From positions 1 to 64,000 of the IMG/VR virus record IMGVR_UViG_3300014205_000001: a stretch of 64,000 nucleotides of DNA. One strand, 5' to 3'. Below the pieces are notes generated by a model, which was not told the DNA's origin, made no database searches, and saw only the letters and a list, made by a program, of their open reading frames with translations. This document shows positions 25,115 through 48,767 of the stretch, in pieces (position 1 is the stretch's first letter; every line of letters starts with the position of its first letter). The stretch comes from a virus (lineage: Duplodnaviria; Heunggongvirae; Uroviricota; Caudoviricetes). A program made the position numbers and the translations under genes.

Positions 25115-25123
25115 ATTTAATTG

Positions 25124-25203
25124 AGCTGGTGATAGGACTCGAACCTACGATGTTTGTTTACCACTTTACAAGAGTGGTGCAATCGCCACTATGCGACACC
25201 AGC
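25124..25203 (-). tRNA. tRNA-Thr(TGT), enlarged variable region
   Basis: CCACT CTTGTAA AGTGG; 12-nt variable region. Confidence 0.88.
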
Positions 25204-25215
25204 ATTTTATTGTTG

Positions 25216-25299
25216 AGCTTGGTGAGGGATTCGAACCCCCGACTGGATTTCTCCTCCTGATTACAAATCAGGTGCGTTAGGCCACTGCGCTAACCAAGC
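25216..25299 (-). tRNA. tRNA-Thr(TGT), long variable arm
   Basis: CCTGA TTTGTAA TCAGG; variable arm GGA-GAAA-TCC. Confidence 0.88.
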
Positions 25300-38305: not shown

Positions 38306-38794
38306 TTATATGTTGTTTTTAATTTCGCGTTCAGCATCTTTTTTCTTTAAATCTTCACGTTTGTCGTAATTTTTCTTACCAGTACAGATATGAATATCTA
38401 ATTTCCAAAAACGCTGATGATTTTTATATAAACGGCCTGGGATGCACGTAAAACCTTTCATCTGTAGTTTCTCACGGATTTCTTCCATTTCGCTCTTATT
38501 CAGTAATAATTTACGTGGGCGTGATTCAACAACAGTTACTTTATCATTCAATATATGATTTGCTAAAGGTGTAATCATACAACCTAATAAGACAAAATCC
38601 TTCCCGTCAAAATTACAATAAGCAGCATCGATTGAACAGTTGTGTTCATTGAGTGCTTTCACTTCCCAACCTTCTAACATGATTCCTGCAGTATACTTTT
38701 CATGAGTATGATACAGAAAATTCAATTTTTTAAAGGAATACGTGGGAATTACCTTTTTTACTTTTATTTCTTTACCCGCGTTTGTCGTTGCCAT
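38306..38794 (-). CDS. smpB: SsrA-binding protein SmpB
   Basis: YTAGIMLEGWEVKAL, RPRKLLLNKSE, GFTCIP, GKKNYDKREDLKKKDAERE. Confidence 0.9.
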   Translation of the reverse strand: MATTNAGKEIKVKKVIPTYSFKKLNFLYHTHEKYTAGIMLEGWEVKALNEHNCSIDAAYCNFDGKDFVLLGCMITPLANHILNDKVTVVESRPRKLLLNKSEMEEIREKLQMKGFTCIPGRLYKNHQRFWKLDIHICTGKKNYDKREDLKKKDAEREIKNNI

Positions 38795-43569: not shown

Positions 43570-43974
43570 TTACATGTAAAAACCGTCAGTATTAAAAATT
43601 CTATCAGATTGAGTCGTTCCAAAACTTTCATAGTTAGATAAAATTTCTTCACCTTCTAATATATCACGTGCAGCGTATGTAACATACTCAGTATCTGGGT
43701 CCAATGTATTAAAATTTTCTTTAGAATGATTAAAAAATCTTGCATTATCCACACAAAGAAAATATAAATCATGGTGTTTATATGCATAAATTTCAATAAA
43801 TTGTTTTTCTAATTCACTTAGTCTTTCAAAATCTTGTTGTGTATAGATACGATCAACCGCTGTATTTAATTCCCAAATTTTTGTTCCTTTAGGAATGAAC
43901 TGTGCTGCGAAACAACCTATTCCTGCATTGGGAATAGAACTGACATTTAATTTTGTTTTAACTAATAAACTCAT
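43570..43974 (-). CDS. SET-domain protein
   Basis: GIGCFAAQFIPKGT, RFFNHS, AARDILEGEEILSNY. Confidence 0.85.
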   Translation of the reverse strand: MSLLVKTKLNVSSIPNAGIGCFAAQFIPKGTKIWELNTAVDRIYTQQDFERLSELEKQFIEIYAYKHHDLYFLCVDNARFFNHSKENFNTLDPDTEYVTYAARDILEGEEILSNYESFGTTQSDRIFNTDGFYM

Positions 43975-43977
43975 ATT

Positions 43978-44340
43978 TTAAGATTTAATAAAATCAACAC
44001 TTTCTGAATAATATCCATTGCTTTCACCATACCAACGAATTGTTACATGACCTTTAATTGTCGCAATATTATAAAACGTCCAAGTGAAACTATCTTGATA
44101 TTCATAACTTACTCCTTCAGGATTTTCACGACTCACATCTTCACTTGCTTTTAATATTGGACTACCCATTAAATCATCCAAATCACCTGCAATATCTTCA
44201 ATTGAAACTGATTCACAACAATCTTGTGAGTGATACATTTTATACACAGTTTCATCGTTACAATAAAAAATCATTTCATCACCACGATTATCAATCTTAT
44301 AAATTATTTTTCCTATTAAATCCTCAATTGAAGTTTCCAT
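43978..44340 (-). CDS. conserved phage hypothetical protein
   Basis: HSQDCCESV...TWTFY...RWYGESNGYYSE motif. Confidence 0.7.
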   Translation of the reverse strand: METSIEDLIGKIIYKIDNRGDEMIFYCNDETVYKMYHSQDCCESVSIEDIAGDLDDLMGSPILKASEDVSRENPEGVSYEYQDSFTWTFYNIATIKGHVTIRWYGESNGYYSESVDFIKS

Positions 44341-44350
44341 TGTAGTTATA

Positions 44351-44824
44351 TTATAAATTTTTCAAAAAGTTTATTGTAACTTCGTTAACAAAGAAAGGTT
44401 CTCCTTTTCCTTTTAATGTTTTCATTACATGACCTACATATAAACCTAACAGTCCTGTATTACCATTCTTATAATCAGTTAAATATCTAGGAAATTGTAA
44501 TACAAATTCCCGCAATATTCTTTCGATTTCTTTTCGTTGTAATCCACACAAACCTAAAACGACTAATGACATCTTTAACATTTCATTAAAGTTAGTTTCA
44601 CATTCTTCAATTGAATTACCCATTGCAATGGGTCCGCCTTCGCCTTCATATATTGCCATAAAACGATCTTCATCAAGTGTTTCACCACTACGATACATTG
44701 TACATTTTAATTCTACTTTTGTCATCCCATCAATTGTATTGGGACGATAATGTATCATGCCAGTATTACTATTTTTATAGTAATGATCTAACCATTTTTT
44801 TTCTATTCTATTTTCCATATTCAT
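44351..44824 (-). CDS. protein with C-terminal GatB/YqeY-like tRNA-binding domain
   Basis: YKNGNTGLLGLYVGHVMKTLKGKGEPFFVNE resembles GatB C-terminus; start re-placed to the ATG just after tRNA-Gln. Confidence 0.7.
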   Translation of the reverse strand: MNMENRIEKKWLDHYYKNSNTGMIHYRPNTIDGMTKVELKCTMYRSGETLDEDRFMAIYEGEGGPIAMGNSIEECETNFNEMLKMSLVVLGLCGLQRKEIERILREFVLQFPRYLTDYKNGNTGLLGLYVGHVMKTLKGKGEPFFVNEVTINFLKNL

Positions 44825-44826
44825 AG

Positions 44827-44900
44827 CTGCCCCACGAGGATTCGAACCTACGATTACCTGAGTCAAAATCAGGGGTCACTGCCAATTAGACGACAGGGCA
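44827..44900 (-). tRNA. tRNA-Gln(TTG)
   Basis: TGCCCTG/TGGGGCA acceptor, CCTGA TTTTGAC TCAGG. Confidence 0.88.
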
Positions 44901-44910
44901 TTATATTTTG

Positions 44911-44998
44911 TTGTCCCACCAGGATTCGAACCTAGATCGAAGGCGTATTACCGCTCGGCGTTCAAAGCGCCGTGTTCTGCCAGTTAAACTATAGGACA
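44911..44998 (-). tRNA. tRNA-Gln(TTG) with 20-nt variable region
   Basis: TGTCCTA/TGGGACA acceptor, CGGCG CTTTGAA CGCCG, variable AGCGGTAATACGCCTTCGAT. Confidence 0.85.
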
Positions 44999-45002
44999 TT
45001 AT

Positions 45003-45039
45003 AAAAATCAAAAAGCCTGATAAAACAATTATCAGGCTT
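45003..45039 (-). terminator. attenuator terminator before tRNA-Gln pair
   Basis: AAGCCTGATAA-TTGTT-TTATCAGGCTT then TTTGATTTTT. Confidence 0.88.
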
Positions 45040-45057
45040 CGTGTAAATTTGTATTAA

Positions 45058-45135
45058 TTAATTCAACAACGTGTCTGACAATATTTTTAAATATTGTTGC
45101 TGCTGCCATTGTGAATATGTAATTAAAATTTTCAT
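45058..45135 (-). CDS. leader peptide MKILITYSQWQQQQYLKILSDTLLN
   Basis: 25-codon ORF with CAA TGG CAG CAG CAA CAA, then terminator, then two tRNA-Gln. Confidence 0.88.
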   Translation of the reverse strand: MKILITYSQWQQQQYLKILSDTLLN

Positions 45136-45143
45136 TATAGTTG

Positions 45144-45214
45144 AGCGATTGAGGAGAATCGAACTCCCGTCTTTGCCTTGGCAAGGCAATGTAATACCAT
45201 TATACCACAATCGC
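45144..45214 (-). tRNA. tRNA-Gly(GCC)
   Basis: TTGCC TTGCCAA GGCAA; U73. Confidence 0.93.
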
Positions 45215-45224
45215 ATTTGTAGTG

Positions 45225-45295
45225 AGCGAATGAAGGGAATCGAACCCTCGTATCCTGATTGGAAGTCAGGTGTAATACCATTATACTACATTCGC
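45225..45295 (-). tRNA. tRNA-Gly(TCC)
   Basis: CCTGA CTTCCAA TCAGG; U73. Confidence 0.93.
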
Positions 45296-45364
45296 ATGTG
45301 GCAGACATCGCTTAACTGCCGAGAAGTGTACCTTTTCTCTTCGAAATTTCTTTCGCGGTTTTTG

Positions 45365-45436
45365 TGGAGCTTAGGGGAATCGAACCCCTGTCCGTTGAGT
45401 GCAAATCAACAATAATAGCCTCTATACTAAAGCCCC
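45365..45436 (-). tRNA. tRNA-Ala(TGC)
   Basis: GGGGCTT/AAGCTCC with G3:U70; GTTGA TTTGCAC TCAAC. Confidence 0.92.
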
Positions 45437-45636
45437 ATTTTTATTTGTTCAGCTAAATAAAGATAGCTGTGTTGTTTCTTTTACGATCAATAGCGTTGTT
45501 AAAGTCTACTACTGAAGTTTCATAATCGTCATCATACATTCTGACTTTCATTTCTTTTTTGTTTATTACGTAGAAAAAAGATAAAATTACTAACACATAT
45601 TTAATTCAATTAATCATTTTGTTTATTTTTATTTTG

Positions 45637-45712
45637 TAGCCCTTATAGGATTCGAACCTATGATCTCCTCTTTGTAAGAGAGGCGCTTTAAAACCAGCTA
45701 AGCGAAAGGGCC
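45637..45712 (-). tRNA. tRNA-Val(TAC)
   Basis: CCTCT CTTACAA AGAGG; ATAGG TTCGAAT CCTAT. Confidence 0.92.
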
Positions 45713-45719
45713 ATATAAC

Positions 45720-45752
45720 AAAAAAATCCGAACTGTTGGGTTCGGATTTTTT
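45720..45752 (-). terminator. attenuator terminator of the Val/Ala/Gly/Gln tRNA array
   Basis: AAAAAATCCGAAC-CCAACA-GTTCGGATTTTTTT, ending 7 nt before tRNA-Val. Confidence 0.88.
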
Positions 45753-45772
45753 AAATTTCTTTTGTTATTTCA

Positions 45773-45859
45773 TTAACATAAGTTATCCGGACCGTGTGAT
45801 TTCCACACCGCTGCTGCGCCTTGTTGCCCGACTACTAATATGTTATTGAAGTTTTTCAT
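45773..45859 (-). CDS. leader peptide MKNFNNILVVGQQGAAAVWKSHGPDNLC
   Basis: 28-codon ORF with run GTA GTC GGG CAA CAA GGC GCA GCA GCG GTG. Confidence 0.88.
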   Translation of the reverse strand: MKNFNNILVVGQQGAAAVWKSHGPDNLC

Positions 45860-45863
45860 ATAA

Positions 45864-45940
45864 TGTATATATAAATAATTTGTTGCTTTGTTTAATAATA
45901 TACTACAATTATAAGAATAATTTTTTATATGTGAAAATTA
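45864..45940 (-). promoter_or_regulatory. promoter cassette of tRNA array 2 (close copy of 27096-27174)
   Basis: TTATAATTGTA motif plus TAAAC-N16-TATATATA. Confidence 0.7.
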
Positions 45941-47062
45941 TTATCCTACTTGTATTATTGTTTCAGTATTATTATCTATTAGGTATTGTACATCACCATC
46001 AGGTCCACCAACGTTGTTAGTCATTAAAGATTTATGTAAAGTAATAGTTAATGTATTACCTGATAAATTAAAGACACTGTTATTCGCTGCAGAAATACCT
46101 AAATTTCGACATTCACTAATATTTAATGAAGTTAAATTTGTAGCACCTGAAACTAAAGGTCCGATAATTGTGCGGCATTTTGGAAATGATGCAGATGTTA
46201 ATAATAAAGCATTTGAAAAATTAGATGCTCCTAAATAATGACATTCAGGTAATGAAATTGATGTTAATAAAGGTACAGTAGTAAAAGCTGAAGCACCAAT
46301 ATATCTACAAAAAGGTAAAGAAACGGAAGTTATTGCTGCGCATAAATCAAAGACAGTATCTAAAAGTGTACGACAATAAGGTAAATTAATAGTAGCTAAT
46401 GAAGTACAACCACTGAATGCTGCAGATGATATAGTCACACATTGTGGGAAATTAATAGAAGTTAATGACGTGCAATTTTGAAATGCATTGTTCATAATTG
46501 TTGTTAGTAAAGGTGCATTAACTGTTGTTAATGCTGTACAACCTGAAAATGTTGATGCAGAAATTGCTTTACACATAGGTAAATTTAATGTCGTTAATGA
46601 TGTACAACCTAAAAATGCTGATGCAATAAACATAACAGCTTTTGATAAATTTACTGAAGTTAATGATGTACAACCTTGTACTGAATTACCACCAACAAAT
46701 ACACATCTAGCTAAATTTAATGTAGTCAATGCTGTACAATTAATAATTGCACTACCACCAATATTTGTTACTGCATTTAAATCCAGAGTTGTTAATATTG
46801 TACAACCTGAAAATGCTGTACCGTTTAATTGAACAACTTGTGATTCGTCATCTACAAAAGAAATTAAATGTGTATTATTTGCAAATATACTTGTTTTGAG
46901 TGTTATACCTTTTGCACCATGTAATGTTACTACATTGCCTAATACATTTACACTTTTTATTAAACTTCCATTTGCTGTACCTGATTGTAATGTAAAAAAA
47001 GCATTCCAACCTGCTACATCCGATGCGGGTGCGTTTACTATATTATCGTATGTTAAAATCAT
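45941..47062 (-). CDS. BspA-type leucine-rich repeat (LRR_5) protein
   Basis: ~22-aa repeats AFSGCTSLTSINLP.C..I. Confidence 0.88.
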   Translation of the reverse strand: MILTYDNIVNAPASDVAGWNAFFTLQSGTANGSLIKSVNVLGNVVTLHGAKGITLKTSIFANNTHLISFVDDESQVVQLNGTAFSGCTILTTLDLNAVTNIGGSAIINCTALTTLNLARCVFVGGNSVQGCTSLTSVNLSKAVMFIASAFLGCTSLTTLNLPMCKAISASTFSGCTALTTVNAPLLTTIMNNAFQNCTSLTSINFPQCVTISSAAFSGCTSLATINLPYCRTLLDTVFDLCAAITSVSLPFCRYIGASAFTTVPLLTSISLPECHYLGASNFSNALLLTSASFPKCRTIIGPLVSGATNLTSLNISECRNLGISAANNSVFNLSGNTLTITLHKSLMTNNVGGPDGDVQYLIDNNTETIIQVG

Positions 47063-47063
47063 A

Positions 47064-48767
47064 TTATATAATTGTTACTGTATTATTTGTTTGTAAATAT
47101 TGAATATCACCATCAGGCGCACTTGAATTATTTGTTAATAAAGTTGCTTTAACTTTTAATGTAATAGTATTTGCTATATTCCCACTAAAAATTGTATTAT
47201 CACCTACTGTTGTACCTAAAGTTTTGCAATTAGAAATATCAATGTAATTGATACTATTTGAGGTTGAAAAACATGAATTAGGTATTGATTCGCATAAAGG
47301 TAATTCGATTCTTTGAAGTGACACACAGCTTTGTGCAGCTGCACCTGTAATAGATACACATTTAGGTAATTTTAATTCATGTAATGAATAACATGCTGCA
47401 AAAGTAGTACCAGTAAGAATTGTACATTTAGGAAGAGATACATTTGTTAACGCTAAACAAGATGTGAAAGCTCCTGTTACAGTTGTACATTCAGGTAAAA
47501 CGATATTTGTCAATGCAAAATTTTCATGAAATAATGAATCACCTGTCATTGTTACTAACTTAGGTAAATTAATTGTAGTTAATCCCCACATTTGATAGAA
47601 GCCATTTAATGCTGCATTCGTACATTCCGGTAAATCAATTTCAAATAATAAAGGACTTTGGAAAAAAGCGCTTTGTATTATTGTAGTTAATTTAGGCAAA
47701 TATACACTTGTGCACATATAACATCTACTTATTGCACCTTGACCTAAACTAATACATTCAGGTAATATAACTTCTTTTAATGAGACACATAAGCTAAAAG
47801 CATTCAAACCTACAGTTGTAACTTTAGGGAAATTTATTGTTTCAATAGATGAACAATTTAAAAATGCACTTGTACCTAATATTTCACAATTAGGCATTTC
47901 TACTCTAAGTAAACTATAACAACGATTAAAATCTGCTGAAGATTTAATTTTAGGTAAATATACAAATTCTAATGAATGACAATCTACAAAAGTATTTACA
48001 CCTGTTATTAATTCAGGCATGTTAATTGTTGTTAATCCTGTGCAACCTGAAAAACTAGCATTAGTTGAAATTACTTTAGGAAAATTTATTGAAACTAAAC
48101 TTAGACAATTAGTAAAACTTGCGGCAATCGTAATACATTTAGGAAAATCAATTGAACTTAATACACCACAGGTATTAAAAGCGGATGCAGCAATACTTAA
48201 ACATGCAGGAAATTTAGTAGTAGTTAATATTGTACAACCTGAAAATGATGATACACCAATAGCTGTAATACATGCTGCATAATCAATGCATGAAATTAAA
48301 TTTACATTATTTAAGAATAAATTTAATTTAGTTGTAATATTTGCACCACCGTATAATCGAACAGTATTACCTATTACTTGCACACGTGTGAATGCAGTAC
48401 CTAAAGTTGGTAAATTAAACAAAGTATTCCAATTGGCTAAACTTGTTGCAGATGCGACAGGAACGTTTGAAATATTATTCCATATTAATTCTAAATATCT
48501 ACCTTTATTAAAAGGTACTGAATTGGAAGGAGCTAAAGAATTATCTTGATATAGAGGAGAAACAATTACTGTATCGCCATTAATTATCCGTCCTAAATCA
48601 CGATCATATATTTCGTTACTAGGATTAAACGTAGAAGCAGTTGTGATAGTAACTAATTCGTTACTGCTACTAATATCAGTAGCTACAGGTTTTTTAAAAA
48701 ATTCAATTTTACTACCACTCCAAATTGATTGATAAGCATAGTTTAAATATTTAAGTTTAGTTTTCAT
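47064..48767 (-). CDS. BspA-type leucine-rich repeat (LRR_5) protein with N-terminal adaptor domain
   Basis: repeats F..C.SL..I.LP.C; N-terminal ~85 aa similar to 58115 ORF. Confidence 0.88.
   Translation of the reverse strand: MKTKLKYLNYAYQSIWSGSKIEFFKKPVATDISSSNELVTITTASTFNPSNEIYDRDLGRIINGDTVIVSPLYQDNSLAPSNSVPFNKGRYLELIWNNISNVPVASATSLANWNTLFNLPTLGTAFTRVQVIGNTVRLYGGANITTKLNLFLNNVNLISCIDYAACITAIGVSSFSGCTILTTTKFPACLSIAASAFNTCGVLSSIDFPKCITIAASFTNCLSLVSINFPKVISTNASFSGCTGLTTINMPELITGVNTFVDCHSLEFVYLPKIKSSADFNRCYSLLRVEMPNCEILGTSAFLNCSSIETINFPKVTTVGLNAFSLCVSLKEVILPECISLGQGAISRCYMCTSVYLPKLTTIIQSAFFQSPLLFEIDLPECTNAALNGFYQMWGLTTINLPKLVTMTGDSLFHENFALTNIVLPECTTVTGAFTSCLALTNVSLPKCTILTGTTFAACYSLHELKLPKCVSITGAAAQSCVSLQRIELPLCESIPNSCFSTSNSINYIDISNCKTLGTTVGDNTIFSGNIANTITLKVKATLLTNNSSAPDGDIQYLQTNNTVTII

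Follow-up and report, generated by a model that had tools for sequence, protein, structure and literature searches.

A short glutamine-coded open reading frame (ORF) followed by an intrinsic terminator, set within a tRNA gene array of a phage genome, is likely a second attenuator in series with the one that opens the array. Judged from sequence, the arrangement is best explained by serial ribosome-mediated attenuation of transcription, acting on phage tRNA genes, with a probability of roughly three in four. The source record is 391,061 nt long, has direct terminal repeats and 31% G+C, and encodes a major head protein and a large terminase; the window analyzed here is its first 64 kb (64,000 nt), and coordinates refer to the window unless another record is named. 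On the minus strand, one promoter (45913) is followed by the outer leader and terminator, genes for tRNA-Val, -Ala, -Gly, and -Gly, the inner leader and terminator, and two tRNA-Gln genes (Table 1).

According to folding predictions, a ribosome held at codons 8-14 of the inner leader would free 45082-45075 to pair with the 5' arm of the terminator, and a ribosome past about codon 16 would cover the anti-terminator strand so that the terminator forms. Slow Val, Ala, or Gly decoding would open the outer gate only, whereas slow Gln decoding would open both, Gln codons being present in the outer leader as well. Newly made tRNA-Gln(UUG) should then speed decoding and shut the gate again. The useful trigger would be loss of functional tRNA-Gln, for example when host anticodon nucleases cut it, and not a shortage of glutamine itself, because starvation is not cured by adding uncharged tRNA. 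Attenuators, as described in the available text of PMC1183508, read decoding speed. The "Gln shortage" proposed as the signal in a first-pass annotation of the window is better put as slow Gln decoding, which tRNA loss also causes, and it is probably slow Gln decoding, through tRNA loss, that this Gln gate senses.

Table 1. Elements of the nested array and the genes behind it (window coordinates).
Feature	Coordinates	Strand	Basis
Outer phage promoter, TTTTCA ... TATAATTGT class	45908..45937	-	PWM score 34.9
Outer leader ORF, 28 codons, control segment VVGQQGAAAVW	45773..45859	-	11/26 codons V/A/G/Q
Outer intrinsic terminator	45721..45752	-	terminator call
tRNA-Val(TAC)	45636..45712	-	tRNA scan, Rfam
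tRNA-Ala(TGC)	45364..45436	-	tRNA scan, Rfam
tRNA-Gly(TCC)	45224..45295	-	tRNA scan, Rfam
tRNA-Gly(GCC)	45143..45214	-	discriminator base (Rfam end) 45144
Inner Gln leader ORF, 25 codons	45058..45135	-	sequence
Inner control codons CAA TGG CAG CAG CAA CAA	45094..45111	-	sequence
Inner 1:2 hairpin, 8 bp	45078..45097	-	folding
Inner anti-terminator strand (predicted), partner 45035-45028 of terminator 5' arm	45073..45082	-	folding
Inner intrinsic terminator and T-rich tail	45004..45040, stem 45040-45012	-	terminator call
tRNA-Gln(TTG), 89 nt, long variable arm	44910..44998	-	tRNA scan, Rfam
tRNA-Gln(TTG), 75 nt	44826..44900	-	tRNA scan, Rfam
157-aa ORF, C-terminal GatB/Yqey tail domain	44351..44824	-	PF02637
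DUF7448 ORF, likely co-transcribed	43978..44340	-	domain match
SET-domain ORF, likely last gene of unit	43570..43974	-	domain match; next promoter 43558

The inner leader, its companions, and the genes behind it

The first-pass annotation had placed a second leader 8 nt after tRNA-Gly(GCC), and the placement holds: the ATG lies at 45135 on the minus strand, with the discriminator base of the tRNA at 45144 and a stop codon at 45060-45058. The claimed run CAA TGG CAG CAG CAA CAA is found as codons 9-14 (45111-45094, minus strand), and leader and terminator stand directly before the two tRNA-Gln(TTG) genes, 44998-44910 and 44900-44826. Only three of 782,082 six-codon windows, taken from all six frames of the genome, contain at least five Gln codons, and the inner run alone is stop-free. 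CAG makes up 11% of the Gln codons in the genome and occurs at least once in each of five Gln leaders (this genome and the four distant relatives described below), so that both Gln codons are sampled.

The start context of the inner ATG is better than that of 96% of internal ATGs, falls at the 37th percentile of gene starts, and scores lowest among the six leaders of the genome, in which a Shine-Dalgarno-like word occurs at only 1.4% of 284 gene starts. The four distant relatives have an upstream protein gene of about 130 aa whose end adjoins the leader start and which would help initiation there. Here the leader start is only 8 nt from a tRNA, and a tblastn search of this genome with the relatives' 133-aa upstream gene gave no convincing match (best E 0.67); a start in that position, without the upstream gene, is the weakest link for this genome's leader.

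The single TGG in the run had been taken as a sign that Trp might be a co-signal, a suggestion that fails on comparison: Trp is absent from the Gln run in all four distant relatives (G187 has one late Trp codon, near the stop and outside the run), and the Trp codon of the outer leader has become Cys in a close relative. Trp co-sensing was rejected as not conserved, and Trp co-control would be local at most. Also rejected, on the same ground, was an alternative Ala frame (45109-45032, minus), which starts MAAAT in good start context and ends inside the terminator arm; the alternative ATG is absent in the four distant relatives.

Six units of short ORF plus terminator were found in the genome by a screen upstream of 27 tRNA positions, with leaders rich in Leu/Ile/Thr/Cys/Met, Val/Ala/Gly/Gln, Gln, Phe/Trp/Lys/Asn/His, Tyr, and Ser/Arg. 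The codons of each leader specify amino acids carried by the tRNAs that follow, and the true pairing ranks first among 720 permutations. Besides the inner Gln leader, two of the six lie within arrays, at G000 200751 (minus) and 234874 (plus). The Phe/Trp/Lys/Asn/His leader sits after tRNA-Met and is kept in G004 and G188, and the Tyr leader, YYWYYY, also has one Trp in its run. A strong promoter and a hairpin, without a leader, precede a pair of tRNA-like genes at G000 201163-201311 (L004) whose anticodon loops are unusual: one gene is called Gln-TTG, and the loop of the other has 8 nt. The two genes are possible decoys, and G188 has a similar odd TTG gene. At G000 233458-233940, a 146-aa ORF that looks Thg1-like ends at a stop codon placed within an arm of the terminator that precedes the Pro/Glu/Asp array, a possible case of translation-coupled read-through with inverse logic.

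The 157-aa ORF behind the tRNA-Gln genes (44824-44351) matches PF02637 with 33.7 bits against a cut-off of 27, over profile positions 88-143 of 148, which comprise the C-terminal helices only, and matches GatB (3al0_B) with E 1.3e-5. Because the available text of PMC2811023 and PMC1865053 ties the GatB/Yqey domain to tRNA-Gln recognition, this ORF fits the Gln theme. As fixed cargo the gene was rejected: it is replaced in the close relative, and PF02637 occurs in none of five related fragments; a search for a related locus found none, only one 79% homolog without context. The earlier claim that the Gln gate also serves the ORFs behind it may hold for this genome, where they follow the tRNA-Gln genes and are likely co-transcribed, but not for its relatives, where they are exchanged.

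Several features of the surroundings may be recorded here. Genes longer than usual (81-89 nt) encode tRNA-Gln, -Thr, -Lys, and -Glu (window 44910-44998 and 25123-25299; G000 200209-200293 and 234025-234112), and a long tRNA-Gln is also found in G188 (88 nt). A structured 58-nt spacer between tRNA-Ala and tRNA-Gly (45300-45359), with 74 other letters in its place in the close relative, is possibly a decayed tRNA. BspA-type leucine-rich-repeat genes lie directly upstream of the array promoter (45941-48767). Other translation-support genes include SmpB (38306-38794), a permuted tmRNA call made at low threshold behind a promoter (G000 71178-71573), and a free YqeY gene (G000 237418-237861).

Conservation and predicted folding of the proposed Gln gate

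The nested layout occurs in all four of the distant virus records that hold the array: G001, G003, G187, and G188. Capsid identity is 63% for G003, 68% for G187, and 57% for G188; G001 is a fragment in which a neighbouring protein is 57% identical. Their inner Gln runs read QQNQQQQ, YQQNNLQQLY, YQNILSQQY, and YQQLQQQQF, respectively. The G187 leader has only three Gln codons, and Asn codons stand between the Gln codons of G001 and G003, but Gln is the sole residue that is repeated in every one of the five control windows. In all five genomes an intrinsic terminator lies between the Gln leader and tRNA-Gln. The array was not found in G004 and G007, both fragments, and G006 (37% capsid identity) has four matched leaders, none with Gln, and no tRNA-Gln match. 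In G188, the inner terminator is immediately followed (L239) by the 5' part only of a first tRNA-Gln and then by an intact long one.

The close relative, seen in runs X2 and X4 of one study (run X1 was left out of the count), has the same nested layout and the same direct junction from tRNA-Gly to leader. In it three N-terminal codons are changed, one CAA is lost, the frame is shifted after the run, and the spacer and terminator loop differ, while four Gln codons, the anti-terminator strand, and the stem are kept; this genome has one more base in the A run, and the position of the stop differs. Retention of the N-terminal frame, the Gln codons, and the paired bases, with no such retention of the peptide tail, is as expected for an attenuator. 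A contig from RNA run X5 aligns with this genome over one 198-nt piece that spans the tRNA-Gly pair, with 197 letters identical, and is unlike it from 45141 on, leaving the leader uncovered; it may be a variant without the gate, or a chimera.

The inner terminator has a 12-bp stem (45040-45012) of -15.9 kcal/mol and a T-rich tail. All of the segments on which the proposed switch was built are present: ACAATATT (45097-45090) and AATATTGT (45085-45078) for the 1:2 hairpin, ATTCACAATG (45116-45107) and CGTTGTTGAAT (45071-45061) as a further pair, and the invading strand TTGTCAGAC (45081-45073) with its terminator target GCCTGATAA (45037-45029). The fold of the whole inner leader reaches z=-5.2, with 0 of 200 shuffles as good; without the terminator z is only -1.6 (14 of 200 shuffles), which does not set the 1:2 hairpin by itself apart from chance. 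The hairpin would hide the anti-terminator strand when no ribosome is on the leader, and termination would then be the default. It is predicted in this genome, the close relative, and G187, for which the predicted probability that the anti-terminator holds the 5' arm without a ribosome is 0.04, 0.19, and 0.15, and is not predicted in G001, G003, and G188, for which that probability is 0.91, 0.66, and 0.88.

Invasion of the terminator by the anti-terminator fares better across genomes than within this one. The terminator stem differs in each of the five Gln leaders, and each leader offers its own stem a complementary strand at codons 17-23, directly behind the Gln codons; the position and complementarity of this predicted anti-terminator, whose pairing would exclude the terminator, co-vary across the five stems. 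Shuffle p values for the five Gln leaders are 0.25 (this genome), 0.008, 0.012, 0.056, and 0.010. The duplex of this genome, at -8.4 kcal/mol (500 shuffles), is the weakest of the five, and its anti-terminator pairs better with the arm of G003 than with its own. Over 17 leaders, own-pair energies beat permutations (p=1e-5), the own terminator arm is the best partner in ten, and p falls below 0.05 in 14, this genome's Gln leader being among the three that fail.

For predictions of switching, the transcript was cut before the 3' arm of the terminator and several ribosome footprints were tried. With a ribosome on codons 8-14, the 5' arm is held by 45082-45075 with a predicted probability of about 0.68; with a ribosome from codon 17 on, the anti-terminator holds it with about 0.2 or less. 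In the model, the anti-terminator can form with a ribosome anywhere up to about codon 15, and the boundary shifts by two codons across the footprints tried. At equilibrium the full terminator wins for every ribosome position, so any switching must be kinetic.

Proposed serial gating and its alternatives

Promoters were scored with a position weight matrix (PWM) built from 77 genome sites, which describes one promoter class and for which the lowest training site scores 13. The outer promoter, at 34.9, is among the top six positions in the genome and is also the top hit of another scan. The first-pass annotation had named an independent promoter for the Gln genes as one observation that would count against it; no site of the phage's own class lies between the two terminators, where the best score is -9.6, and no internal promoter of the modelled class was found in any of the five arrays (-9.6, -4.0, 1.0, 5.6, and -6.5), whose outer promoters score 16.7-34.9. 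Nor was the motif TAnnTTTG found in 44990-45930. Candidate promoters in the tRNA-Gly D-arms (TATAATGGTA, scores -16 and -19) and in the terminator loop (GATAATTGT, whose score of 1.1 is under the minimum of 13 and whose letters differ in the close relative) were rejected. Only two terminators were called between 45900 and 43500, and neither a terminator nor a promoter was called between 44826 and 43600. From the PWM and terminator calls, the simplest unit comprises the promoter, outer gate, tRNA-Val/Ala/Gly/Gly, inner gate, two tRNA-Gln genes, and three ORFs. In the first array of the genome, the terminator of the Leu/Ile/Thr/Cys/Met leader is followed by a phage-type promoter (26939, minus; score 16.3) that would bypass that gate, so such gates are not always the sole entry.

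With one promoter, Gln trouble reaches the inner gate only if the outer gate also opens; serial gating therefore requires Gln codons in the outer leader. The outer leader here carries two, as first reported, and all five outer leaders keep them (2, 3, 3, 4, and 4), with at least two in the permissive window, although tRNA-Gln is absent from the outer leaders' own blocks in all five genomes. Elsewhere than at Gln codons the outer leaders differ widely. Gln accounts for 16 of 130 codons in the five outer leaders as against 0 of 287 in 11 leaders without a downstream tRNA-Gln, a contrast whose Fisher p of 4e-9 is overstated, the five genomes sharing ancestry and the counts not being independent. 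The serial two-stage logic has thus come through the promoter and outer-Gln-codon tests and is supported as an account of how the array would be regulated. With only two Gln codons in this outer leader, the product of the two read-through chances may be small.

It is unlikely, in our estimate, that the Gln leader is a real attenuator with its own promoter of another class, the two gates then working in parallel rather than in series. The phage has two sigma factors and the PWM covers one promoter class, TATAAT hexamers occur at 45285, 45204, and 45139, a promoter-like site (score 13) precedes the nested Phe/Trp/Lys/Asn leader of G188, and a stand-alone Gln/Asn leader is found before tRNA-Gln at L126. 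However, the hexamers score -16, -19, and -45, two of them being ordinary tRNA D-arm sequence; the four relatives have no internal site; and parallel gates would need no Gln codons in the outer leaders, yet these are kept in all five.

The other two alternatives question the switch itself. The hairpin might be a leaky constitutive terminator, or a processing or stability element that fixes tRNA-Gln at a lower level, with the leader of this genome a decaying, untranslated relic since loss of the upstream protein gene. The weak anti-terminator (p=0.25), the extra base in the A run with its changed stop, the start 8 nt from a tRNA, and loss of the 133-aa gene all point that way; but no Gln run in the genome is stronger, the start context still exceeds 96% of internal ATGs, and the close relative, with the same junction, retains the run, the anti-terminator, and the stem amid changes at neighbouring positions, and we regard a relic as rather improbable. 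Lower still do we place a gate that answers true glutamine starvation or general uncoupling (a stall in codons 1-15, ribosome-targeting stress, or Trp or Asn shortage) and not Gln decoding in particular. Such breadth would suit the model's tolerance of any ribosome position up to about codon 15, the Trp codon here, the Asn codons of G001 and G003, and the alternative-frame ORF ending inside the terminator arm, but it leaves aside that Gln alone is repeated in all five control windows, that Trp and the alternative ATG are absent in four distant relatives, and that every leader matches its own array. Serial attenuation read through Gln decoding remains the preferred reading.

Distribution, probable host, and comparison with known systems

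The leader was not found among 82 matching GenBank phage records, in which the matches are to single tRNA genes only, and the exact long-arm tRNA-Gln pattern had 0 matches. The pattern of the second tRNA-Gln hit 30 loci, with the nested leader present in one (L031, the same as G001) and absent in 29, mostly tRNA-Gln genes inside general arrays of other phages. The pattern of the first hit 12 loci: three belong to G001/G003, seven have a broad leader before a mixed array, L126 has its stand-alone Gln/Asn leader, and L130 has a Pro/Asp/Gln leader. One further pattern search matched four of 29 records, with one new tRNA-Gln (G018) that lacks a Gln leader; another matched one of 16 records, and the same pattern had no match in cellular genomes. 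BLAST with the tRNA-Gln gene found no match in five genomes, and none of 16 tRNA-Gln loci, from 14 of 151 host-phylum genomes, has a Gln leader, so that a Gln leader before tRNA-Gln looks like a phage adaptation. Besides L126 and L130, loci of other phages with leaders, such as broad ones before mixed tRNA arrays, include L120, L123-L129, L016, L025, L032, L034, and L002.

The host is likely a member of the Bacteroidota, the phylum named for 14 of the best 20 SmpB relatives (about 40% identity) in the 13 of 64 parts of the cellular genomes scanned. The phage genome has two sigma-70-family genes, and the RNA polymerase motif DFDGD was not found among its ATG-started ORFs of at least 100 aa, which suggests that host core RNA polymerase transcribes the phage genes. 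An alternative genetic code was rejected: of 295 long ORFs under table 11, 19 stop at TAG and 21 at TGA, the default scan returned no suppressor tRNA, and the Gln focus can be explained without recoding.

Phage tRNAs can act in counter-defence, replacing host tRNAs cut by defence nucleases. A broader proposal, which we put forward tentatively, is that the leaders together act as an alarm, codon-resolved and self-closing, for the destruction of host tRNAs, with every block of tRNAs being freed only when its codons are read slowly. Gln would be a second lock in the Val/Ala/Gly block, with pass-through Gln codons in the first; the leader peptides would record which tRNAs host defences attack; and in this genome the same lock would free a GatB/Yqey-tail protein that would help to charge or shield the long-armed phage tRNA-Gln. 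In the available text of PMC11555353, phage tRNAs offset tRNA-cutting defences and a phage tRNA-Tyr is driven by a strong promoter, whereas tRNA-Gln expression here is predicted to be conditional. The main text of that paper and of PMC10264068, as far as available, does not mention attenuation or a leader, and leader-peptide control of phage tRNA genes was not found in searches of the open-access literature. Why phages carry tRNA genes is, in the accessible part of PMC10264068, a long-open question. If the gate opens on slow decoding of one codon family, tRNAs would be made on demand, as replacements, and the question would become testable with a 130-nt reporter.

T-box riboswitches likewise choose between terminator and anti-terminator according to the state of one tRNA species, but the sensor here would be a translated ORF, 100 nt long, rather than a tRNA-binding RNA. 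A T-box was rejected, since the Rfam scan of the window at gathering thresholds returned 18 matches, all tRNA. The pheST synthetase attenuator is of the same ribosome-mediated kind as the gate proposed here. Like the trp and his attenuators, as the available text of PMC1183508 presents them, this unit combines a short cognate-codon ORF, a predicted anti-terminator behind it, an intrinsic terminator, and an output that would relieve slow decoding. It differs in that the gated genes are phage tRNA genes and not cell enzymes, and in that it lies within an array, after four tRNA genes, and has no Shine-Dalgarno sequence. At the level of sequence, the Gln gate has the makings of a trp/his-type attenuator, for which translation and read-through control are predicted.

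The closest parallel to the series itself is Salmonella mgtCBR, where, according to the portions of PMC3641672 available, two attenuators, each with a short ORF, lie in series on one transcript, one of them sensing a charged tRNA (Pro). There a single 5' leader contains both, their target genes are shared, and the two signals, ATP and proline, have additive effects. Here the two terminators are separated by four tRNA genes, so that each gate would have an output block to itself, and the codon of the inner gate is also present in the outer leader. The nested logic, in which one transcript would have two outputs and the second could be reached only through a first sensor that reads its codon as well, is not present in mgtCBR, the sole printed tandem case found, and may have an engineering use as a compact two-level translational sensor.
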